Below are positions 1 through 14,585 of a DNA stretch of 28,556 bases, piece by piece. The notes beneath the pieces are model-generated. The model was given only the letters and a program-made list of their open reading frames with translations. It made no database searches and was not told where the DNA came from. How positions within the stretch are numbered: the stretch's first letter is position 1; each line of letters opens with the position of its first letter. The stretch comes from Thermodesulfovibrionales bacterium (lineage in GTDB: Bacteria; Nitrospirota; Thermodesulfovibrionia; Thermodesulfovibrionales; UBA6898). Both the position numbers and the translations under genes were made by a program. The stretch covers positions 1-28,556 of the forward strand of contig JBIOIY010000041.1 in the NCBI GenBank assembly GCA_044450345.1. Direction: 5' to 3'.

Positions 1-6
1 CAACGG

Positions 7-1632
7 ATGTCTACTCTAACGCTCGCAACCAGCGTATTTGTTCTGTTTGGCGCTGTTCTCCTGCTCATTGCCATCTTGCGGAGTAGGAAGATCCGGAGTA
101 TTGTCCCTCCCGAACTGCAGCGCCGATGGCGCATGATGGTCGCTTTGATGCTCTTTTTTCTCGCCGGCTATATTTGCCTTATCATTATTCTTGTAAAACA
201 CTTAGCATTACCCATCGAACTGATCACGGGCCCCGTGTTTATTGGTGGCGCCTGCTTCGTTTTCATCGTGATTAACCTCACTCGCAGCACAATCGTCAGG
301 ATACGGTCGACTGAGGAAGAACTGCGATTAATGAATGAGTCTCTTGAGAAGCGCGTTATCGAGCGCACACGGGACCTGCAGCTATCCCATGAATTCCTGA
401 GGACCGCTCTCGACAGTCTCAATGACGAGGTTTTGATTATCGATACGAATACTTACAAAATTCAAGATGCGAACGAACCCTTTCTTGCGCAATATGGATT
501 GACCCTGGATAAAGTGATTGGTAAGACTTGTTACGAGGTCACGCATAACAGGACTGATATCTGCTCTCCTCCGCACGATCTTTGCCCTCTTTTGGAAACC
601 GTGAATACCACCGGCAGGTTCGCCATGACGGAGCATATACACTATGACAAAAACGGAAGAAAGATTTATGCCGAGGTATCCACCTCCCCCATCATGGACC
701 CCGACGGGAGCATCCGACAAGTCGTCCATGTTACACGCGACATAACCGAGAGGAAGCAAGCCGACGAGGCGCTTCGGAAAAGCGAAAAAAGATATAAGGA
801 CCTTTTTGATTCCACCCGGGATGGAATCTTTCAGGTAAATGCTGAAGGCTTTTTCACGATGATGAACCGTTCGGGGGCAGGAATCTTCGGCTATGAGACT
901 CCTGAAGAGATAATCGGAAGGAACGCCCTGGAGTTCTGGAGAGACCCTAAGGACCGGGACGTATATCGGAAGGAATTGACAGGGAGGAAATCCGTGAGTG
1001 CGTATCCTATGGGGGCCAGGAAGAAAAACGGAGAACCCATAGAGCTTGAGTCATCAACCCGGATAATAGAAGATGAGAGCGGCAATTTTCTCGGCATCGA
1101 AGGGATACTGCGGGATGTGACAGGACGCAAGCATATGGAAGAGGAGCTGCGTTCCATGTCGCTGAGAGACGAACTCACGGGCCTTTACAACCGGCGGGGA
1201 TTAATAACCCTGGCGGCACAGGAGTTGAAAATGGCCGATCGACTGAAAAGGGGAATATTTATACTTTATGCCGATTTAGACGGGCTAAAGGTAATCAACG
1301 ATACACTGGGTCATGAGGAAGGCGATAGGGCCATAAAAGAGACCGCCGTCATCCTGAAGAAAACTTTCCGAAATTCCGATATCATCGCACGCATCGGCGG
1401 AGATGAGTTCGTGATTATTCCTATTGGTACCGCCGGGGACAACCTGGATGCGATCACCTCACGGCTACAAAAGAATATCGATATACAAAACGAAAACATT
1501 GATCGCAAATACAAACTGTCTCTCAGTGTCGGCATAGCATATTACGACCCGGAACACCCTATCACTATCGATGAACTTTTAACTATGGCGGATGCATTGA
1601 TGTATGCTCAAAAAAATAAAAAGAGGTCTTAG
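7..1632 (+). CDS. Membrane-anchored PAS-PAS diguanylate cyclase (GGDEF)
   Basis: Three N-terminal hydrophobic helices and two PAS/PAC domains ending RDITERK and RDVTGRK. GGDEF domain has DELTGLYNRR, DLDGLKVINDTLGH, an intact RIGGDEF active site and an RxxD I-site (RNSD). Confidence 0.93.
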   Translation: MSTLTLATSVFVLFGAVLLLIAILRSRKIRSIVPPELQRRWRMMVALMLFFLAGYICLIIILVKHLALPIELITGPVFIGGACFVFIVINLTRSTIVRIRSTEEELRLMNESLEKRVIERTRDLQLSHEFLRTALDSLNDEVLIIDTNTYKIQDANEPFLAQYGLTLDKVIGKTCYEVTHNRTDICSPPHDLCPLLETVNTTGRFAMTEHIHYDKNGRKIYAEVSTSPIMDPDGSIRQVVHVTRDITERKQADEALRKSEKRYKDLFDSTRDGIFQVNAEGFFTMMNRSGAGIFGYETPEEIIGRNALEFWRDPKDRDVYRKELTGRKSVSAYPMGARKKNGEPIELESSTRIIEDESGNFLGIEGILRDVTGRKHMEEELRSMSLRDELTGLYNRRGLITLAAQELKMADRLKRGIFILYADLDGLKVINDTLGHEEGDRAIKETAVILKKTFRNSDIIARIGGDEFVIIPIGTAGDNLDAITSRLQKNIDIQNENIDRKYKLSLSVGIAYYDPEHPITIDELLTMADALMYAQKNKKRS

Positions 1633-1695
1633 CCCGAACTGTCCTTTCCGCCTCGGCTGATCAGACGTGGTTTACGCCTTGCAATAAAGAGAGTT

Positions 1696-1715
1696 TCGGC
1701 AACGCTCGGCAACGC
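1696..1715. repeat. Exact 10-bp tandem duplication (TCGGCAACGC)x2
   Basis: Read directly at 1696-1705 and 1706-1715. Confidence 0.85.
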
Positions 1716-1778
1716 CCCCAGCTTATCCCGTTAGAAATAAAGCTCCTCTGGAAGTGCTAACTTGTTAATGATTTAACG

Positions 1779-1806
1779 TTGACAGCGCCTTTAATTCTGA
1801 TACCCT
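1779..1806 (+). promoter_or_regulatory. Candidate sigma-70 promoter upstream of the hybrid kinase
   Basis: TTGACA (1779-1784), 16-bp spacer, extended -10 TGaTACCCT (1798-1806). A second candidate, TTGACT-16-TAACAT with TGn, lies at 1905-1932. Confidence 0.45.
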
Positions 1807-1840
1807 GTAAATTCCTGTAAATATATAGTAAATGTCTGTA

Positions 1841-1902
1841 TCTGGTGAGTGTCTGGTGAGTGTCTGGTGAGTGTCTGGTGAGTGTCTGGTGAGTGTCTGG
1901 TG
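1841..1902. repeat. 11-bp tandem repeat (TCTGGTGAGTG)x5 plus a partial copy
   Basis: Five perfect copies at 1841-1895, then TCTGGTG at 1896-1902. It is outside the kinase frame, which has an in-frame TGA at 1917. Confidence 0.97.
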
Positions 1903-1922
1903 GGTTGACTCTTTGCTGAGAG

Positions 1923-4900
1923 GTGGTAACATTGGATAAGAGAGATAAGGGATCAGAACTTTTGCGAAAATCAGAAGGGGAAGGGAATGCAGACGCGCAC
2001 CCAAAGAGGATGAAGGCTGTCCGAACTGGCGGTGGGACCCACAAGAACTCCCAACAAACATTCGAAGCACTCGTGAGTTGCTCGCCCCTTGCCATCATTG
2101 CTGTCGATCCGGCCGGGAATGTCACTATATGGAACCCGGCTGCCGAACGCATCTTCGGGTGGAGGGCGGAGGAGGTCCTGGGTGGCCTGAATCCCATTGT
2201 ATCCCCGGAAAGGCAGGAAGAATTCCACTCTCTACTTAAAAGCATACTGGAAGGCACAGCGTGCTCCGACGTCGAAACAACCAGGAGAAGGAAAGATGGT
2301 TCGGACCTCGACGTAAGAATATCGGCCTCTCCGGTCTTCCATGCCAAGGGCGGAATAAGCGGCGTCATGGCTGTGATCAACGACATCACCGAGCAAAAGC
2401 GCGCGGAACAGAAACTGCGGGAAAGTGAAAAGAAGTTTCGTGCCTTGTTTGAATCATCCCATGATGTCATCGTGTTTTTAGACAGAGCGGGCAACATTAT
2501 AAATATTAATCCCCGTGCGGAAACATTGACAGGCTACGCCAAGTCCGAATTGTGCAAGATGAATGTCTTTGACGACTTGATTATTGCGGAAGACCACCCC
2601 ATTATCCGCCAAGTCATCAAAGATGCATTTGAGGGGCGGACCCGGACCTATGAGGAACGCTGGAAAACAAGGGGGGGAGAGATTATTTGGTTTGAAGGTC
2701 TGACCCTCCCACGACGATCTCCACAGGGGGAAGTCTTATCGACTTTTTGCACCCTGCGCGACATAACGGACCGAAAACTAGCAGAGGAAAAGTTGCGCCA
2801 GAGTGAGCGCGACCTCGCAGAGGCGCAAAGGGTGGCAGGGCTGGGCAACTGGATATTGGATATCGTCACCAATACCGTGAGATGGTCGGAAGAGCTTTAT
2901 CATATTTTTGAGGTCGAAAAGACCGAGTTCGACGGCACGTATGAGTCTTTCATGAGCCGAGTCCATCCCGACGACAAGCCGCTAGTACTGGAGATTAACA
3001 AAAGAGCCAGAGAAAGTGGAGAACCCTTCGAAGTTGAATATCGCACCGTGACGCGAGCCGGCCGGTTGAAGCATATCAGGGAGATCGGATATGCCATGAA
3101 GGACGCCGAGGGTAGGGTAGTCGGCTTGTTCGGCACCGCCCAAGACATCACCTGGAGCAAGCGGATGGAAGTAGCGCTTAAACAATCCGAGGAGGTTCTC
3201 AGGGGCGTCATAGACAATCTAGCCATAGGCGTCTCCCTCATAAGTCCTGAGATGGAGATATTGATGCTTAACAAGCAGATGCTACAATGGTTCCCCGGTA
3301 TAGATGTATCAAAAAAGCCGATTTGCTACAGTGCATTCAATGTGCCGCCGGGGGAGGAAATCTGCAGCTATTGCCCTACCTGTAAGACCCTGATGGACGG
3401 GGATGTTCATGAGTCAATAACCGAATCACCTGCGGGAAATGAGATCCGAAATTACAGGATCCTCTCGTCTCCAATTCGGGACAAGGACGGCAAGATTACA
3501 GCAGCCATTGAGATGGTCGAAGATATCACCGAGCGCAAGAGAACTGAGGAGGCCCTCAGAGCGTCGGAGCGTCAATACCGGCAACTGGTGGACAACGCGC
3601 TTGTGGGCGTATACAAGACGACCCTCGAAGGGAAGTTCCTCTATGTAAACGATGCGATGGCCAGGATATTCGAATGCGAAAACGCGGATGAAATGCTGTT
3701 GCTGCCCGTCGGAATACGATACAAGAAGCCCGAGGACCGAGAGGCATTCCTGAATATCCTTAAGGACAGGGGAAAGGTCCCCTATTATGAGATCGAAGTT
3801 CCCACAAAGACCGGGAAACTGAAAACCATTGTCATAAGCGCCGTTCTTGATGACGGGTTCATCGCGGGAATGGTCACCGACATCACCGAGCGCAAAAAGG
3901 CTGAGGATGCGTTGCAGAAGATCGAAAAGAGATACAAAGACCTCTTTGGCGCTACCCTCGACGGGATCTATCAAATAGATGCCGACGGTGTCTTCATTCT
4001 GATAAATTCCGCGGGGGCAAAGATGTTAGGCTACGAAAGTCCCGATGAGATAATCGGCAAAAAGGGCCTGGAATACTGGAGAGACCCCAGGGACAGAGAT
4101 GCCTTCAGGGCCGAGCTGAATATTAAGAAATCTGTGAGCGGTTACCATATGAGGCTTAAGAAGAAAAACGGGGAACCCATAGAGCTTGAAACATCGAGCG
4201 CCATAAAAGAGGATGAAGAAGGCGCTTTTCTTGGTATGGAGGGAATTCTGCGGGACGTAACAGAACGCAAGAAACTTGAAGCCCAACTCCGTCATGCACA
4301 GAAGATGGAGGCGGTCGGCACGCTGGCAGGGGGCATTGCTCACGATTTCAATAATATCCTCAATGTGATAATAGGGTATGGCTCCATGGTGCTGGACAGG
4401 CTGGAAGACGATAGTATTTCGAAGGATCAGATGAATGAGGTGATCGCCGCTGCCGAGAGGGCTGCGAATCTCACCAAAAGACTTCTCACCTTCAGCAGAA
4501 AACAGATTACTGAAGTGAAGCCGATTGACGTCAATGGTACTGTCACCGGCATCCATAAAATGCTTGTCCGAATCATCGGCGAGGATATCGATTTTAATTT
4601 TGATCTTGCGGACAAAAGGTTGGTAGTGATGGCGGATGCCGGGCAGATAGAACAGGTACTTATGAACCTTGCTACAAATGCCAGGGACGCAATGCCCAAC
4701 GGCGGACGGCTGACGATCGGCACCGGCCTTGAGGAAATAGATTATGAATATATTGCTTTAAATGGATATGGAAGGCCCGGAATGTATGCGCTTATCACGG
4801 TTTCTGATACAGGGCACGGAATGGATGCGGAAACTCAGAAGAAGATATTCGAGCCTTTTTTTACAACGAAAGGTCTTGGAGAAGGAACAGGGCTCGGCCT

Positions 4901-5423
4901 TGCGATCTCCTATGGAATAATCAAGCAGCATAACGGATACATCAAGGTCTACAGCGAACCTGGACAAGGCACTGTATTTAAAATATATCTGCCTCTCATT
5001 GAAGAGTCGGCATCCCTGGAGAGGGAGACAGAGGCCCCTGACGCTATCAAGGGCGGAAATGAGACTGTCCTCGTCGCCGAGGACGACGCTTCCCTGAGGG
5101 ACCTGTCAAGGATAGTTCTGGAGTCCTTCGGCTACAGTGTTATCACCGCAGAGGACGGGGAAGATGCTATCGCAAAATTCATGGAAAACAGGGAAAGGAT
5201 CCACCTTGTCATGCTTGACATGATCATGCCGAAGAAAAACGGTAAAGAGGTCAGTGAGGTGCTCAGGAAAGCGAGCCCGGGGATAAAAATACTCTTTTTG
5301 AGCGGATATACGATGGACATTATCAAAAGCAAGGAACTGATGGAATCCGGCGTTGACTTAATCCATAAACCCATAAGGCCGCAAGACCTTTTGAGAAAGG
5401 TGAGGGAGGTCCTGGATAAATGA
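1923..5423 (+). CDS. Cytoplasmic multi-PAS hybrid sensor histidine kinase (about 6 PAS/PAC, HisKA, HATPase_c, REC)
   Basis: Repeated PAC ends (DITEQK, DITDRK, DITWSK, DITERK x2, DVTERK), H-box [10 protein letters not shown]-box [30 protein letters not shown] and a C-terminal receiver (LDMIMP). Start is uncertain: GTG 1923, TTG 1962 or ATG 2010. Confidence 0.93.
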
Positions 5424-6484
5424 GGGAAAAGATACTTATCGTCGACGATGAGGAAAGAAATCTCAAGCTGCTCACCAAGTGGCTCATTCCATTGGGCTAT
5501 GATATTGAGCTTGCCCTGACCGGAAAAGAGGCGGTGCAGAAGACCAAGGACTACAGACCCGACCTGGTAATCCTTGATATCATGATGCCGGTTATGGATG
5601 GCTACGAAGCGTGCAGTCTTATAAAAGCAGACCCGGAGACAAAAAACATACCGATAATTATGGTGACGGCGCTTCATGACAGGGAGTCAAAGTTAAAAGG
5701 TCTCTCCGTCTCCGCAAATGATTTTCTTTCCAAACCCATCGACCAGACCGAATTAACTATACGCGTCAAAAACCTTCTCAAGATCAAGGCATTCGAAGAC
5801 TTTATGCTCAGGAATAATCAGGTACTGGAAGAGGAGGTCCGAAAAAGGACACTGGAGCTTGACGATGCCTTTAGAGAGCTGGAAAACATGAGTAGTGAGA
5901 TGGTTGGGAAATTGACGGCCGCCGCTGAATTCAGGGACACGGACACAGGCGCTCATATATCGCGGGTAGGGTTTTATTCCCGCGAGATCGCCAGGGGGCT
6001 GAATTTGCCCCTGGATTTTATCGAAACTATAGCCTACGCAAGCCAGCTGCATGACATAGGCAAGATAGGAATTCCGGACAGCATACTGCTGAAACCGGGA
6101 CCCCTTACCAGGGACGAATTTGAGATCATGAAGACGCATACGTCCATCGGCGGGAAGATACTCTCAGGTTCAACCCATCAAAAGCTTCAAATGGCAGTTT
6201 CCGTTGCATTGAACCATCACGAACGGTGGGACGGCGGAGGATATCCGAGGGGGCTCAAAGGAGAGAAAATACCGCTTGAGGGAAGGATCGTCATGCTCGC
6301 CGACCAGTATGACGCTCTGCGGGGTCAAAGGGCCTACAAACCGGCGTTTGACCATCAAAAGACGTTCAAGATTATTGCAGAGGGCGATGGCAGGACATTG
6401 CCGGGACACTTCGATCCGGCAGTCCTCATGGCCTTTAAAGAAATCGCACCCTTGTTTGAAGAGATATTTGAACAGCACCAATAG
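5420..6484 (+). CDS. Response regulator with HD-GYP cyclic-dinucleotide phosphodiesterase domain (RpfG-like)
   Basis: REC domain (VDDE, LDIMMP, SKP) plus [17 protein letters not shown] and RAYK. ATGA overlap with the kinase stop. Confidence 0.94.
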
Positions 6485-8040: not shown

Positions 8041-8211
8041 ACCTTCCCTTTCATTCAGTAACATAGCTTCGCTAATAATAAAACGGCACGGTTTATTTTT
8101 GCAATGGTACATGTCCAAAAAAGGCTTGCCCTCTCTAATAATTTAATGCTATCCTTTGTTGGGGATTATCAGCAGGAACCCCTTATCGTGTCGAGGCAAG
8201 AAAGGGACCTA

Positions 8212-9745
8212 ATGCTCTCTAAGGTATTGAGCGCGAGCGTCATAGGGATCGAAGCATACAAAGTCGAGGTTGAGGTAGACATCTCTTCCCGAGGACTTCC
8301 TCATTTCTCAATGGTCGGGCTGCCCGACGCAGCAGTGAAAGAAAGCCGTGACCGGGTAAGGGCGGCCCTGAAAAATATCGGCTTCAACTTCCCGCTAAAA
8401 CAGATCACCGTCAACCGTGCCCCGGCCGATCTCAAGAAAGAGGGCTCGGCATTCGACCTTCCGATTGCGGTCGGCATCATATGCTCCGAGGGACTGATAG
8501 AACAAGAAGCGATCAGCGGATATCTGTTCACAGGTGAACTTTCACTCGATGGGAGGATAAAGCCTGTCAGGGGCGCCTTGTCGATGGCGCTCAAGGTCAG
8601 AGGGGCGGGACTGAGAGGGATAATACTGCCTTCTGAAAATGCACCTGAGGCTGCAGTTGTCAACGGTGTAAACGTTTACGGCATCAGTAGCCTTCCGGAA
8701 GTCGTAGATTTCCTGCGAGGGGCAAAGGATTGTTCGCCTTACGCGATAGACATCCCCGAAAAAATGAAGGTTTTATCGGTCTATGAAGATGATTTCTCCG
8801 AGGTTAAGGGGCAGGAACATGCAAAGAGGGCTCTTGAGGTATCTGCTGCAGGCGGGCACAACGTGCTTATGGTCGGTCCTCCAAGGTTCAGGGAAGACAA
8901 TGCTTGCAAAACGCCTGGCGACCATCTTGCCGGGCATGACATTCGATGAGGCCTTGGAAACAACCCGTATCCATAGTGTCGCAGGCCTGCTCAGAGACGA
9001 CCAGCCTCTCCTTGCTACAAGACCGTTCCGCTCCCCCCATCATACAATTTCAGACGTCGCACTGATAGGGGGCGGACAGACACCGAAACCCGGTGAGGTA
9101 AGCCTTGCCCATAATGGATTGCTCTTCCTCGATGAAATTCCTGAGTTTAAGAGAAATGTCCTCGAGGTCCTGAGACAACCGATAGAAAACGGAGAAGTCA
9201 CTGTGTCACGCGCAGTCGCATCCGTTACATACCCCGCATCGTTTATGCTCGTAAGCGCTATGAACCCCTGTTTCTGTGGATTCTTCTCGGATCCACGACA
9301 CCAGTGCACATGTACGCCCGGTCAAATTTACCGATATCGCAGGAGAGTTTCAGGCCCGTTACTCGACAGGATTGACATCCATATTGAGGTCCCGGCAGTT
9401 CCCTATAAAGAATTGTCGACTGACTATGTGGGAGAGAAGTCGGAAGACATAAGAAAAAGGGTCGTCGCGGCGAGAGACATCCAGCTCGAAAGATTCAAGG
9501 GAGATAAGATCTACTGCAATGGCCAGATGAAGACCCGGCACATAAAGAAGTTTTGCAGGCTGAAGGAAGATGCCCAAAATCTTCTTGAAACGGCAATGCA
9601 TAAACTCGGGTTATCGGCGAGGGCGTATGCGAGGATTCTGAAACTTTCGCGCACCATAGCGGATTTGGAATCGTCGACTGACATCCAGTCGAATCATATC
9701 TCGGAGGCGATACAATACAGGACGCTGGATAGAGGGCAGTATTAG
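8212..9745 (+). pseudogene. comM: ComM/YifB Mg-chelatase-like AAA+ ATPase with a +1 frameshift in Walker A
   Basis: The N-terminal part ([34 protein letters not shown]) and the C-terminal part ([37 protein letters not shown]) are in different frames. An extra A at 8883/8884 splits GPP-GSGKT. Confidence 0.9.
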
Positions 9746-10023: not shown

Positions 10024-10569
10024 ATAGTTAATCAAAGGAGAGTATCACCCGGGCGGGTCGTCGACAAGACCCGCGTAAACAACCAGATAAGGCTTATTAA
10101 AGCGAAAGAGATACGGGTTGTCGACGATGAGGGGCAGGTCGGCATAATGGATATTGAAGCGGCATTGAAGCTCGCCGGAGAACGGGATTTGGATCTCGTA
10201 GAAATCAGCCCCCTGGCTGAGCCGCCGGTATGCAAGATCATGGATTATAGGAAGTTCAAGTTCGAGGAAGGCAAGAAAGAGCGAAAGGCCAAAAAAAATC
10301 AAACGACCCTCACACTCAAGGAAATCAGGATGCGCCCTTCGATCGATACCCATGATTATGAGTTCAAGAAGCGTAATGTGCGGAAGTTCATCGGTCACGG
10401 GGACAAGGTTAAGGTGACCATTCGCTTTAGAGGACGGGAATTTAGTCGCCAGGACCTGGGGACGAATGTCCTGAACAGGTTGGCGCTCGAACTGGAAGAT
10501 ATCGCGAAGGTAGAATCCCAGCCGAAGATGGACGGCCGCCAGATGGTAATGATCCTCAGGGCTTCGTGA
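10024..10569 (+). CDS. infC: Translation initiation factor IF-3 with non-canonical AUA start
   Basis: RVNNQI...EIRVVD, LDLVEI..PPVCKIMDY, KEIRMRP.ID.HD, GDKVKVTIRFRGRE. SD AGGAGG (10011-10016) lies 7 nt before the in-frame ATA at 10024. The ORF track starts at internal Met 10147. Confidence 0.93.
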   Translation: MVNQRRVSPGRVVDKTRVNNQIRLIKAKEIRVVDDEGQVGIMDIEAALKLAGERDLDLVEISPLAEPPVCKIMDYRKFKFEEGKKERKAKKNQTTLTLKEIRMRPSIDTHDYEFKKRNVRKFIGHGDKVKVTIRFRGREFSRQDLGTNVLNRLALELEDIAKVESQPKMDGRQMVMILRAS

Positions 10570-10582
10570 CATCATTTCTTCC

Positions 10583-10732: not shown

Positions 10733-10933
10733 ATGGAACAAGGAACTGTAAAATGGTTTAACGACAGCAAAGGCTTTGGATTCATCGCGAATAATGATGG
10801 AAGCGAAGCCTTTGTCCATCATACTTCCATCCAGGGTAATGGCTTCAAAAGCCTTGCTGAGGGTGACAAGGTCAGCTTTGATACCGAAAAAGGCCCGAAA
10901 GGCCCCAAGGCGATCAATGTCGTTAAGTTGTAA
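10733..10933 (+). CDS. csp: Cold-shock protein (CspA family)
   Basis: GTVKWFN, RNP-1 KGFGFI, RNP-2 AFVHH, GFKSL.EG. SD AAGGAGGT. Confidence 0.97.
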
Positions 10934-10944
10934 TTAACGGGAAT

Positions 10945-10975
10945 AAGGCCCCTTCCGGACGGAAGGGGCCTTCTC
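10945..10975 (+). terminator. GC-rich hairpin after csp (weak terminator or stabiliser)
   Basis: 12-bp perfect stem AAGGCCCCTTCC-GGAC-GGAAGGGGCCTT with a poor U tract. Confidence 0.6.
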
Positions 10976-10988
10976 ATCAGAGGGGAAT

Positions 10989-11360
10989 ATGAACTACAGC
11001 GTGAATAACAAAAAAAATACAGCAAGGATTGAAAGACAGCAACGGAAGCTCGAAGCAGGCTTCGTATCCGCGCAATTCCCAGAGGTTACGGGCATCGTCG
11101 TAAACATGATATATAATCAGAGGGGCATACAAAAATCATTATGCCGGGTTGTTAATTTCTTTCCCGGCAGTTATGCCTTGTTCAGGATAGAATGCTTGAA
11201 CAAGGAATGTTGCGATGGCGGGTTTGATCTCACTCAGGTTATCTCAGGGATGGTCAGAAACCGCAGAGAGGCCGCAAAAGGAAATATCAGCTGTGAAGGC
11301 AATTCCGCATCTGCCGACCACTCGACTATTACTTATGAAGTTTCCATACAATACACATAG
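10989..11360 (+). CDS. Hypothetical Cys-containing protein
   Basis: 123-aa ORF with SD GAGGGG. Motif FRIEC-LNKE-CCDGGFDL and a distal ISC. A small hairpin follows at 11357-11374. Confidence 0.8.
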   Translation: MNYSVNNKKNTARIERQQRKLEAGFVSAQFPEVTGIVVNMIYNQRGIQKSLCRVVNFFPGSYALFRIECLNKECCDGGFDLTQVISGMVRNRREAAKGNISCEGNSASADHSTITYEVSIQYT

Positions 11361-11676
11361 GGGAGCTTCCCTATATTCTCAGGCATAATCGCCAAATTGG
11401 AACCTGCAGAGAGTCTGCGGACCCTCTTCTCGGCAGGATCGACTTAAATATTGAAGCGTCGGCCACCCCCTACAAAGAATTGTCAAAAGAATATAGATCT
11501 TAGGCCTGGACGCGGAATAGAGTCTGAAACAAGCGACCCTCTAAATTTCTTAATGTTTGTCTAAGACGTATCATGCTGATTTCAAACAACATTTTCTCTA
11601 CTATACAAATTACTGAGTCGGTTTATATCTAAGTTCTATAACCTTGAGTAGACGACTCTCTATATAAACACTTATA

Positions 11677-11721
11677 AATCAGCTACTTTCTCACTTCCAA
11701 AATATTGGCACCACGCTTGCT
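11677..11721 (+). promoter_or_regulatory. Sigma-54 (-24/-12) promoter with an upstream IHF-like site
   Basis: TTGGCACCACGCTTGCT (11705-11721) matches TGGCAC-N5-TTGC with exact GG-N10-GC spacing. AATCAGCTACTTT (11677-11689) resembles WATCARNNNNTTR and sits within an AT-rich tract. Confidence 0.8.
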
Positions 11722-11731
11722 AATTATTGAG

Positions 11732-11925
11732 AGTGCAACGTACTTTTGATATCTCTTGGAGGAGATCGCTATCGCAGGAGGGTACGGGTGACGCGGGTCG
11801 GGCTGGCAAATCATTTATGATTAGTGCCAGGCATAGGGGCTTTGGCAGTGTGATTCGTTGTTCGATGCCTTCCATCGGGCAGCGAAAGCGGGGATCGGCA
11901 CACTGGCCAAGGCCCTACCTTTTTA
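11732..11925 (+). ncRNA. Putative sigma-54-dependent structured small RNA of unrecognised family
   Basis: Three consecutive hand-folded helices (11739-11786, 11803-11830, 11834-11917), H1 and H3 rich in G-U pairs, ending in a U tract at 11920-11924. No credible protein gene follows the promoter. Confidence 0.6.
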
Positions 11926-12078
11926 GACGGTCATTTTCCTTGTAATCACACCTGTCGGAGAAAACCTGTCACAAAGGGTACACCGATATTCACAGCACCC
12001 CAAAATTCCCTCGGAGTCTTGTAGGCCTACTATCTTGATCTTTTTCTTGCGAATACCCCGCATCAAAGTGTCTCTTTA

Positions 12079-13596
12079 TCAGGACTTGAGTATCATCTGG
12101 TTCGTTGAGGACCGTGTCTCTCCTATAGAGGTAACGCGCACTGCAGCTTGATCGCGGATAGGACACTTGTTTTCACAAATCCCGCAACCGATACAGAGAT
12201 TCGGGTCCACATAAGGGCGCTTCAGCATTTTTGTCGTTCCGTCGCGAAGCTCCACTTCAAATGTCCGAAACCAGATCGCCTTCGGTGATGTGGGGCAGAC
12301 CTCTTCGCAGACTATGCAGTCGATATTCATCGCCCAGGGCAGGCACCTTCCCCGGTCGTAAAAGGCAGTGCCGATCTTGAGAGGCTTCTGTCCGGCGCCC
12401 TTTCCAAGTTTTTTATCAACAGTGAGAGGGCCGATAGCGCCGGTAGGGCATACGCGACTGCAGAGCACACAGTTGTACTCGCAGTAGCCGATCCTGTTGA
12501 TCAGTATCGGCGTCCAGATCCCCTCGAATCCCGCCTCCAGTAAAGCAGGCTGGATCGCGTTGGTAGGGCAGACCTTCATGCATTCCCCGCACTTGATACA
12601 CCGTCGGAGGAAGTCCTCTTCGGAGAGGGAACCGGGAGGCCTGATTACGCGATACTGCGGTGAAGTTTTGGAGGCGATGGTGCTTCGCATCATGGGGAAT
12701 AGTACCGCCCCTGCGAGGGCGCTCTCGATCAGCCTGCGACGGCTTACGTCGAGAGGCATCTGGACAGAACTTGAGGGTTTTGACAGGCCGTAATGTATCG
12801 CGCCCTCAGGGCAGTCTTCGATGCAGTTCATGCAGAGGTGACATTCGGTGACGCGAAGGGCCGTATGGGGATCACATCCGCCATGACAGTGGCCGAGGCA
12901 TTTTTTGCAGTCGGTGCAAAGGTCGACGTCGCGCCATATCCTGAGAAGAGGCCTGAAAGAAACCAGCCCCAGAAGAGCACCAAGGGGACAGACTGCACGG
13001 CACCAGAATCGCGGCAGAAATCTGTTCGCAAAGATCACCGCAAGGAAGATGAGGCCCAGCAAAGTTCCGCCATTAAAAAGGGGCTGCTTCAGATAGAGCC
13101 AACCCCGGCTGTGATTAATCGCCGGAAATACCGAGATAGCGAAGGACCTCGTGATGAATGGAAGAGGATCGAGCAATCCAATCTGGAGCGAACCGAAAGC
13201 AGCTAGGGCTAGGAACAGGACAAGGAAATAGTATTTGAGACGGTAGAGGGTGCGATAGGAATTCAGTGCAACGGTATCTGCCGCCCTCAGCCTGGAGAAG
13301 ATGCTTCCTGCAATCTGGTTGATGATGCCCATCGGACAGACCCACGAACAGAAGAAACGGCCGAAGAAGAGTGTCCCTATAATGATAAGGAGCGAAAGGG
13401 CGAGCCCCTTATAGACTGTCCAACTGGTGAGAAAAGAGGCGATAGCAGCGAGAGGGTCGAGCTCCAGAAAGAGCGGAGTCTCGTAGCCCTTCATGCGCCT
13501 GAAACTCGTCAGCCAAAGAAGAATGATGAAAAGCACTATGAAAAAGGCCGCGTACATTCTCCTGATATTTCGCAGGGTCAGGACCTTTCGGATCAT
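12079..13596 (-). CDS. Membrane-bound polyferredoxin (NapH/MauN-like plus NapG/MauM-like fusion)
   Basis: TM helices, two CxxxCP motifs (GRFFCSWVCP, RFWCRAVCP), six 4Fe-4S-type Cys clusters and IRPPG. Start ATG 13596 overlaps the upstream stop (ATGA). Confidence 0.9.
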   Translation of the reverse strand: MIRKVLTLRNIRRMYAAFFIVLFIILLWLTSFRRMKGYETPLFLELDPLAAIASFLTSWTVYKGLALSLLIIIGTLFFGRFFCSWVCPMGIINQIAGSIFSRLRAADTVALNSYRTLYRLKYYFLVLFLALAAFGSLQIGLLDPLPFITRSFAISVFPAINHSRGWLYLKQPLFNGGTLLGLIFLAVIFANRFLPRFWCRAVCPLGALLGLVSFRPLLRIWRDVDLCTDCKKCLGHCHGGCDPHTALRVTECHLCMNCIEDCPEGAIHYGLSKPSSSVQMPLDVSRRRLIESALAGAVLFPMMRSTIASKTSPQYRVIRPPGSLSEEDFLRRCIKCGECMKVCPTNAIQPALLEAGFEGIWTPILINRIGYCEYNCVLCSRVCPTGAIGPLTVDKKLGKGAGQKPLKIGTAFYDRGRCLPWAMNIDCIVCEEVCPTSPKAIWFRTFEVELRDGTTKMLKRPYVDPNLCIGCGICENKCPIRDQAAVRVTSIGETRSSTNQMILKS

Positions 13597-14585
13597 ATGT
13601 TCATTTCGGCAACGTTGAGCGATTTCCAATCGGAAATCCCGATGCCCCTCTTTTCCGCCATTAGGATAAAAGGAATATCCTCAACCTTCAGATCAAGAAA
13701 CCTCAGTCCGTAAGACTCAATTGCGACCAGATCCACTCCGGCGATAACCGTGTTCTCTATGGATACGTCCGAGAGGTTGCCGCCGGTCGGACCGTTTCTC
13801 TTAAGTACCCTCGTGGCATCCATGACAGTGAGCGTCGGCCTGATCGCGCCGGCGAGGTCCGCGATCGCGGTATTGATGTCCTGATGCAGGCGGTTCCTCT
13901 GTCCGCCGAGGGAGCCGTAAAGGTTTTTCATCGCCATTGTGCACTTGCTGAGGGAGTGGTGTTTCACGACAGGCAGATTGATGAGCTTGTCAGCCTTGTG
14001 GTAGAATGCGCTTACGGGCCACACCTTGAGAGATTCGCCCTTCAGGTCGGTCAGGACAAAGTCGTTTTCGGTAGTCAATCTGATCTTTCCACCCGCCCTC
14101 TTCACTGCGGCCTCGATCCCGGAACGGGCGAAACACCTGTAGGGATCGTTCACCGAAACATCTGTTACCCAGACCTCTGATGCCCGCGCCTCAAGACAGA
14201 GCTTAACGACTGCGGCAACCACCTCGGGATTGGTGTTGGCCGCCTGCTCCGGCTGTCTGTCCCATGCCACGTTAGGCTTCAGCAGGACTTTATCGCCGGT
14301 GCTCACAAACCGGCCCATGCCGCCGATCTTTTCGATCGCGGCCCGGACCATCTTCTCCGCGTCCTGGCCGTGGACCACCGCAAGTTTGGGATAGACTGTT
14401 TTCTCTTCGGGGCGGAAGTCCTTGAAGGTGAGTATCTTGCTGTCACTCCTGCGGACCGGTTCTTTACTGTAAAAGACATATCCCCATACGCCCGCAGTTG
14501 CTGCGAGGCCGCAGGTAGCGGCGGTTCTCAGGAGAAATTGTCTCCTGTTAATGCCCGCCTCCCTTTTGTTGTTTTTCGATGGCAT
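13593..14585 (-). CDS. DUF362 domain protein with twin-arginine signal/anchor
   Basis: NRRQFLL plus a hydrophobic stretch; GDKVLLKPN, ANTNP, INLPVVKHH, MKNLYG, GPTGG. Confidence 0.88.
   Translation of the reverse strand: MPSKNNKREAGINRRQFLLRTAATCGLAATAGVWGYVFYSKEPVRRSDSKILTFKDFRPEEKTVYPKLAVVHGQDAEKMVRAAIEKIGGMGRFVSTGDKVLLKPNVAWDRQPEQAANTNPEVVAAVVKLCLEARASEVWVTDVSVNDPYRCFARSGIEAAVKRAGGKIRLTTENDFVLTDLKGESLKVWPVSAFYHKADKLINLPVVKHHSLSKCTMAMKNLYGSLGGQRNRLHQDINTAIADLAGAIRPTLTVMDATRVLKRNGPTGGNLSDVSIENTVIAGVDLVAIESYGLRFLDLKVEDIPFILMAEKRGIGISDWKSLNVAEMNI

Follow-up and report, generated by a model that had tools for sequence, protein, structure and literature searches.

The window analysed here is positions 1-28,556 (28,556 nucleotides, nt) of contig JBIOIY010000041.1 from the Thermodesulfovibrionales bacterium assembly GCA_044450345.1. 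Before a convergent gene for a Fer4 protein (12079-13629), the + strand carries a -24/-12 promoter of the sigma-54 type, an IHF-like site and about 190 nt predicted to fold into three helices, H1 to H3, that end in an intrinsic terminator (Table 1). Comparative analysis of the sequence identifies this locus as a real and conserved gene for a structured non-coding RNA of no described family, with a sigma-54 promoter that is conserved alongside it. As found so far, the RNA occurs in one genus of uncultured sulfur-cycling Nitrospirota.

Table 1. Features of the RNA locus in window coordinates.
Feature	Position	Strand	Basis or remark
AT-rich conserved blocks, candidate activator-binding region	11538-11650 (-195 to -80)	.	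Invariant columns in 10 aligned upstream regions
IHF-like site AATCAGCTACTTT	11677-11689 (-55 to -43)	+	ATCAR-N4-TT conserved; two HU/IHF-family genes in genome
Sigma-54 -24/-12 promoter TTGGCACCACGCTTGCT	11705-11721	+	Box conserved in relatives; rpoN in genome
Predicted small RNA (sRNA), ~190 nt	11732-11925	+	Predicted start to U-run; fold z = -3.99, covariance model matches, covariation
H1	11739-11786	+	Outer stem CGUACUUUU/GAGGGUACG (11739-47 with 11778-86)
H1 inner hairpin AUCUCU-UGGA-GGAGAU	11751-11766	+	Enclosed by H1 outer stem
GGAGGGU, Shine-Dalgarno-like motif	11777-11783	+	Most widely conserved motif
G-rich linker GGGUGACGCGGGUCGG	11787-11802	+	Predicted mostly unpaired
H2 hairpin, CUGGCA/UGCCAG plus AAUCA/UGAUU	11803-11830	+	Folding, covariation
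H3 long terminator hairpin	11836-11916	+	Outer stem conserved, inner stem variable
U-run of intrinsic terminator, UUUUU	11920-11924	+	Directly read

The promoter box is conserved together with the RNA

The GG of the promoter lies at 11707-08 and the GC at 11719-20, which places the predicted +1 near 11732. An earlier reading of this DNA, made from its sequence alone, had proposed a near-consensus -24/-12 promoter with an IHF-like site upstream of the start and an AT-rich tract around them, and all three were located. The IHF-like site has two mismatches to the Escherichia coli IHF consensus, WATCAANNNNTTR; the sequence WATCARNNNNTTR has no match anywhere in the window. The G+C content is 29.7% in 11540-11704, compared with 54.1% in 11732-11925 and 51.2% in the window. 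No sigma-70-like site was found in 10900-12200.

The same reading had named co-conservation of the box with the RNA as a check. TGGCAY-N5-TTGCW is present in all 10 copies of the locus that have upstream sequence, with its end 11-16 nt before the conserved 5' end of the RNA. The sequence between box and RNA varies among these copies, and the box itself is kept. ATCAR-N4-TT is likewise found in 10/10 copies at a constant spacing to the promoter. Farther upstream, the invariant alignment columns of the 10 copies span both subgroups of relatives described below and reach to about -195; a dyad, TCTTA-N9-TAAGA, lies at 11548-11566 within these blocks. Across the 3.19-Mb genome TGGCAY-N5-TTGC was observed 18 times with 12.4 expected. 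Nine of the 18 matches lie outside open reading frames (ORFs) of at least 120 amino acids (aa), and the pattern thus does mark genuine promoters in this organism.

The RNA is predicted to fold into three helices and a terminator

The + strand of 11732-11925 (194 nt) has a minimum free energy (MFE) of -79.4 kcal/mol and a z score of -3.99, and 0/200 shuffled sequences folded as well. The - strand gave -55.8 kcal/mol and z = -2.69, and 11 of the 72 pairs in the + strand MFE fold are G-U. These values agree with the sequence-only reading, which had the stretch folding almost completely and in favor of the + strand. Both flanks are unstructured (11560-11731, z = -0.97; 11926-12060, z = +0.87), so the structure is confined to 11732-11925.

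The three helices drawn in that reading and the UUUUU were found at the stated positions, by both sequence and folding. H1 needs one correction: its outer stem and UGGA-loop hairpin are present, and the GAUA/UAUC sub-helix is not conserved, with relatives reading GACA or GAAA. The H3 outer stem pairs 11836-52 with 11899-11916 (17 base pairs and one bulged G) and encloses a 14-base-pair inner stem (11854-67 with 11873-86), with GGGGAUCGG forming the 3' internal loop at 11890-11898. H3 is a G+C-rich hairpin followed directly by a U-run and so has the form of an intrinsic terminator; a simple terminator scanner misses it because the stem exceeds the scanner's limits. A run of 4-7 U follows H3 in 9/11 copies. 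The run is interrupted in genome G005, and copy M100 has a C before it.

Homologues found so far fall in one genus

BLASTN detected the locus in 3/40 related genomes, all of the same genus as the window. The window copy and these three relatives were used to build a covariance model (CM), R1, with 204 positions and 59 pairs. R1 found one copy each in seven of the eight genomes of the genus, counting the window's own (labeled G000; the other G labels denote related genomes), and the one genome lacking a match is 66% complete. With stricter filters, R1 had no match outside the genus, either among 46 genomes from 15 other genera of the family or among 149 more from 78 other genera of the order. 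A pattern scan of metagenome contigs returned four loci, and R1 confirmed all four. A shorter core model, R2, was built from 10 copies, and its accepted matches in the family fall only within the genus. An R2 match in G019 (E = 0.084) was rejected: it lacks the promoter and by eye resembles coding sequence. The gene just upstream of the RNA encodes a 123-aa protein and has paralogues; an unfiltered search of 26 loci around these paralogues with the core model gave nothing below E = 0.01.

The copies fall into a close group (G000, G006, G001, G004 and the metagenome copies), with 74-96% identity to the window copy over aligned positions, and a distant group (G005, G003 and G002) with 57-59% identity.

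Compensatory changes support the predicted pairs

Conservation and covariation in relatives had been set beforehand as a further check. The RNA is present in seven genomes. When 11 copies are aligned with the CM, standard pairs make up 95.5% of cells, and 20/59 pairs show two-sided (compensatory) changes, across 34 cells. None of 500 column shuffles matched any of five measures. When the 3' partners were slid out of register, 38-44% of cells paired and 2-7 pairs were two-sided. A CM alignment leans towards its model, so the count was redone on a structure-blind MAFFT alignment with the window's own fold. In that alignment 83.6% of cells pair compared with 37-46% when slid, and 27 cells carry two-sided changes, a count reached by 0/500 shuffles.

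The H1 outer helix is 95.9% paired, and four of its eight pairs have two-sided changes. The enclosed AUCUCU-UGGA-GGAGAU hairpin is invariant in the seven copies that have it, all in the close group; an unrelated 5' hairpin replaces it in G003 and G002, and G005 lacks it. In most relatives a GCUA/UAGC hairpin, formed by a 10-nt insertion, takes the place of GAUA/UAUC. Two-sided changes occur at 5/11 pairs of H2. The metagenome variant L098 (262-419, - strand) has lost H2, with 2 nt replacing 32, and keeps H1, GGAGGGU and H3; H2 is therefore dispensable. Conservation is highest in the H3 outer stem (94.7-98% paired), where A-U is swapped for G-C and U-A for C-G. In the H3 inner helix 7/12 pairs are two-sided, and the sequences are wholly different between copies with pairing in each.

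GGAGGGU or a near variant (GGGGGGU, GGAGGGGU) is present in all 10 full-length copies and is repeated in tandem in the distant group. Downstream of it come a GGGUCGGGG-like linker, the outer stem of H3 and the U-run. The sequence of the linker is kept across subgroups.

The RNA gene is independent of its neighbors

No credible gene follows the promoter on the + strand, as the sequence-only reading had stated. The next real gene on the 3' side is the convergent Fer4 gene, which heads a cluster with DUF362, DUF6599 and aldo-keto-reductase genes. The downstream gene is convergent in 7/7 genomes and comes from three families (Fer4 in two, phosphofructokinase in two and Metallophos in three). The upstream neighbor also varies by genome, being the 123-aa ORF, a divergent Yip1 gene or an isoamylase gene. 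With a downstream gene that is convergent throughout and not the same in every genome, the RNA is not a leader or other untranslated region. A leftover 5' untranslated region had been listed beforehand as an outcome to look for, and this arrangement rules against it.

The 123-aa protein (10989-11360) has no Pfam family and is 76-79% identical across four genomes of the genus. It is encoded in 49/54 genomes of the family, in multiple copies (up to six matches per genome), and its matches in the ESM Atlas are only clusters named 'hypothetical protein'. The gene adjoins the RNA locus in G000, G004, G003, G002 and G016, the last a genome of another genus.

The RNA matches no described family

Whether Rfam holds a related family was the remaining check named in advance. 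In the window no Rfam 15 model reached its gathering score, and six homologous loci had no match at E <= 1. At E <= 10, the only match overlapping the RNA is to mir-34 (E = 1.1, over H3). These searches bear out the expectation that the RNA is not of a known family.

An sbrA-like match at 11978-12047 was dismissed. It scores 26.6 bits against a gathering score of 45 (E = 0.003), and the stretch where it lies is outside the RNA, unstructured and not conserved. The + strand of 11978-12047 contains a GUAGGCCUAC hairpin with a U-rich run, and one RNA-library contig extends as far as 12024; read-through might end here at a second, weaker terminator.

A locus in another genus is a possible counterpart

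G016 has a TGGCAT-N5-TTGCA box (locus L141; G016:C46, 2070-2200) in the same synteny as G003, G002 and G005: a 123-aa ORF, a divergent Yip1-sized ORF, the promoter and a convergent Metallophos gene. An ATCAAG site lies at a spacing of 28 nt, the same as in G003. The RNA predicted there is a different structured one. It displays CGGAGGGUG in the loop of a small hairpin that precedes UUUU, and about 20 nt of it overlap the 3' end of the convergent Metallophos gene. BLASTN with this locus found no further relatives among 54 genomes. A promoter downstream of the Metallophos gene is present at 3/5 same-genus loci and at 1/24 other-genus loci, and the other 23 other-genus loci with the same synteny have no such promoter. 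The G016 locus is a lead to a possible diverged counterpart.

The pattern TGGCAY-N5-TTGC-N25-100-GGAGGGT has 16 matches in 14 of the 54 family genomes, and the reversed control has 0. Eleven matches lie outside the genus, and only that in G016 is syntenic. Four of the 11 were set aside as leaders of ordinary mRNAs, in which GGAGG is followed 3-7 nt later by a start codon. Loci L147, L149, L155 and L158, in other genera, have a sigma-54 box and GGAGGGT with no ORF start after the motif, and L155 also has GGGGAU motifs and a U-run. These four could be analogous sRNAs or chance matches.

Host factors and RNA libraries

The genome encodes rpoN (212 bits), 20 Sigma54_activat (enhancer-binding ATPase) proteins, two HU/IHF-family proteins and hfq. 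csrA was not found in the genome, which is 91% complete. A canonical 6S RNA (RF00013; 71.7 bits) is located elsewhere in the genome, on C61.

Part of 11400-12300 is held by 20 public runs from nine studies, consisting of 18 soil or peat metagenomes and two metatranscriptomes. The locus sequence occurs in RNA libraries of two studies, in contigs covering 11567-11817 and 11802-12024 (depth 2-2.8) and 11629-11833 (depth 8.9). The contig of depth 8.9 comes from a 77-Mb run and carries the 10-nt insertion of the relatives. No RNA-library contig covers 11400-11566 or 12025-12156.

Other genes in the window

Positions 1-6484 hold a cyclic di-GMP/two-component cluster with a PAS-GGDEF protein, a 1166-aa multi-PAS hybrid histidine kinase and an HD-domain response regulator of the HD-GYP type. 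A ComM/YifB-like Mg-chelatase gene (8104-9745) is divided between two overlapping ORFs, 8104-8949 and 8783-9745. The gene is intact as one 538-aa ORF in G004, of the same genus, and the split is probably a frameshift or an assembly error. infC (IF-3) is located at 10147-10569 on the + strand; a non-canonical start codon has probably left the listed ORF truncated. Opposite it, on the other strand, a 176-aa ORF (10045-10575) is likely to be a shadow ORF.

Discussion

The reading that these results favor, with a probability of roughly 60%, is an independent, single-copy gene for a ~190-nt activator-dependent sigma-54 sRNA that acts in trans through the conserved G-rich GGAGGGU. Dependence on sigma-54 and an activator, the transcript ends, the action in trans and the regulatory role are inferred. 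Sigma-54 RNA polymerase would start near 11732 after activation by an enhancer-binding protein on the conserved upstream blocks, and the conserved IHF-like site may assist by bending the DNA. Transcription would stop at the long H3 hairpin and its U-run. The RNA would then base-pair in trans, probably with Hfq, with GGAGGGU and the GGGUCGGG linker that follows it pairing with C/U-rich RNA. Candidate targets are elements in mRNA leaders that resemble the anti-Shine-Dalgarno sequence, or C-rich seeds of other sRNAs. The presence of hfq, a terminator with a U tail and a GGAGGGU common to all copies and to the syntenic sigma-54 locus of another genus support a model of action in trans. GGAGGGU resembles a ribosome-binding site with no ORF behind it, which would fit anti-antisense activation, sponging of C-rich sRNAs or Shine-Dalgarno mimicry.

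Strict TGGCAC-N5-TTGCW occurs four times in the genome with 3.1 expected; a lone consensus match is thus not above chance, and the weight of the promoter rests on its conservation in relatives. Several results weigh against the favored reading. The upstream blocks have no second copy, and no repeated activator site was found elsewhere in the genome. None of the activator genes is on this contig. In the MAFFT alignment 13 pairs are two-sided, a number reached by 49/500 shuffles. GGAGGGU is predicted to be paired within H1 in the window copy, and would therefore have to open to act as a seed. A target scan with ViennaRNA duplexfold of 11772-11803 against 5,733 crude start regions gave no signal: the best energy was -44.8, and the best energies of three shuffled control queries were lower (-46.0 to -47.4). 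The RNA-library contigs start at 11567 and 11629, before the predicted start by 100-165 nt, and one continues about 100 nt beyond the terminator, to 12024; this argues against a clean unit of 11732-11925. These contigs are unstranded and carry neither transcript ends nor an expression level, and DNA carry-over into the libraries is possible.

One alternative, an unlikely one, is that the RNA sequesters a protein, as a sponge like CsrB/RsmZ or like 6S RNA, with the invariant hairpin and G-rich loops serving as protein-binding sites. UUGA.AUCUCUUGGAGGAGAUCGCUAUCG is invariant in seven copies while the other helices vary, which suggests sequence-specific recognition, and a GGA sits in the hairpin loop, one of four GGA in the window copy. 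This hairpin is swapped for an unrelated one in the distant subgroup, however, and by manual count GGA falls to two in G003 and one in G002. CsrB/RsmZ-type sponges combine many loop GGA with a host CsrA, a combination not found here. Base pairing is likelier than CsrA-type sequestration because hfq is present, csrA was not found in the 91%-complete genome and GGA drops to 1-2 in the distant group. A role like that of 6S RNA is opposed by the canonical 6S RNA already present in the genome. The RNA resembles 6S in its length and highly structured fold but has three helices in place of the 6S rod with its bubble, and it does not match the 6S model.

About as unlikely is a decoy that mimics ribosome-binding sites, in which the GGAGG motifs titrate C-rich sRNA seeds (a sponge) or the anti-Shine-Dalgarno tail of 16S rRNA and do not act on mRNAs directly. 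Each copy has two or more GGAGG-like motifs with no conserved start codon or ORF after them. In a genome of the same genus, the 3' end of the 16S rRNA reads GGAUCACCUCCUUUCU; by eye, the hairpin's GGAGGAGAUC is complementary to GAUCACCUCC at 9/10 positions and GGGGAUC at 6/7. Yet GGAGGAGAUC is mostly buried in the hairpin stem and is absent from G003, G002 and G005, and GGGGAUCGG is deleted in G002. Against the 16S tail, the universal GGAGGGU adds nothing beyond GGAGG, and no partner sRNA is known for a sponge. It is quite unlikely that the RNA is a sigma-54-controlled mimic, made on an environmental signal, that soaks up the 16S tail or C-rich sRNA seeds and so broadly resets translation. If true, it would be the first sigma-54-dependent sRNA family described in Nitrospirota.

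It is improbable that the helices are a structured region within a longer transcript, either read-through or a processed precursor, with the -24/-12 match not a promoter in use. The upstream reach of the RNA-library contigs of two studies and the chance-level frequency of the strict consensus would fit such a transcript. But those contigs can show neither ends nor strand, and the box is kept at a fixed distance in 10/10 copies while the intervening sequence varies. The 172 nt upstream are unstructured and AT-rich like regulatory DNA, the upstream genes differ or diverge between genomes, and the search for a sigma-70-like site in 10900-12200 was negative.

It is very improbable that the region codes for a small protein, be it the 72-aa ORF 11727-11945 or a shorter product behind the Shine-Dalgarno-like motifs. 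Every copy has one nearly full-length stop-free frame, and in the window copy a GUG lies 6 nt after GGAGG. The open frames are non-homologous between copies, however: the frame common to G000, M099 and M101 is interrupted by stops in G006 and G004 and is shifted in G001. Most indels do not come in multiples of 3, with 3-7 such runs in each of 9/10 pairwise comparisons. The 72-aa ORF begins upstream of the predicted RNA start and has no Pfam match, and the GUG frame is 10 aa in the window and of unrelated lengths elsewhere.

A sigma-54-dependent sRNA gene, as in the favored reading, is a known kind of system; the present family is new and narrow in range. Its host belongs to the Nitrospirota (Thermodesulfovibrionales), so the gammaproteobacterial frame of the sequence-only reading does not apply. 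A transaldolase encoded in the window has its nearest named relatives in metagenome-assembled genomes of Nitrospirota and Thermodesulfovibrionales, Candidatus Sulfobium among them, with 80-87% identity for the best matches. Among the closest known systems are Qrr1-5, stand-alone, Hfq-dependent base-pairing sRNAs of about 100 nt with several stem-loops and an intrinsic terminator. Literature abstracts describe the Qrr RNAs of Vibrio as dependent on LuxO and sigma-54. The present locus shares with them a stand-alone sRNA gene, a -24/-12 promoter, stem-loops and a terminator, whereas an activator and Hfq pairing are only proposed for it. It has no sequence or structure similarity to Qrr and no Qrr match in Rfam at E <= 10 over the locus. 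It is also longer (~190 nt), single-copy, without an adjacent activator gene and from another phylum, and its conserved motif is G-rich and is not the Qrr seed.

GlmY/GlmZ, CrcZ/CrcY, NrsZ and NfiS are sigma-54-dependent sRNAs of Proteobacteria. Some of them act as decoys or sponges; GlmZ is an activator of translation through an anti-antisense mechanism. The RNA would share with them the class of activator-dependent sigma-54 non-coding RNA, and both decoy and anti-antisense action fit its Shine-Dalgarno-like motif. It differs in having no Rfam match, the comparison with these RNAs being through Rfam only, and from CrcZ also in having no repeated CA-rich or A-rich motifs. Sponge RNAs of the RosA type in Bacillus present G-rich sites to C-rich sRNAs. 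They resemble the present RNA in having G-rich, Shine-Dalgarno-like unpaired motifs in a structured non-coding RNA, and differ in the type of promoter and in showing no homology.

The hosts are uncultured bacteria of soil, peat and paddy, and literature abstracts tie the group to sulfate respiration. A full-text literature search, as far as its coverage extends, returned no paper on regulatory RNAs or sRNAs in Thermodesulfovibrionia, Candidatus Sulfobium or Thermodesulfovibrio. The impact of the finding is limited for now because its reach is narrow (one genus and one possible diverged counterpart). The locus is a well-supported candidate: its alternative-sigma promoter is conserved, its helices covary and its terminator is clear. 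The RNA could be added to RNA family databases. It could also be an entry point to signal-dependent post-transcriptional control in these bacteria.

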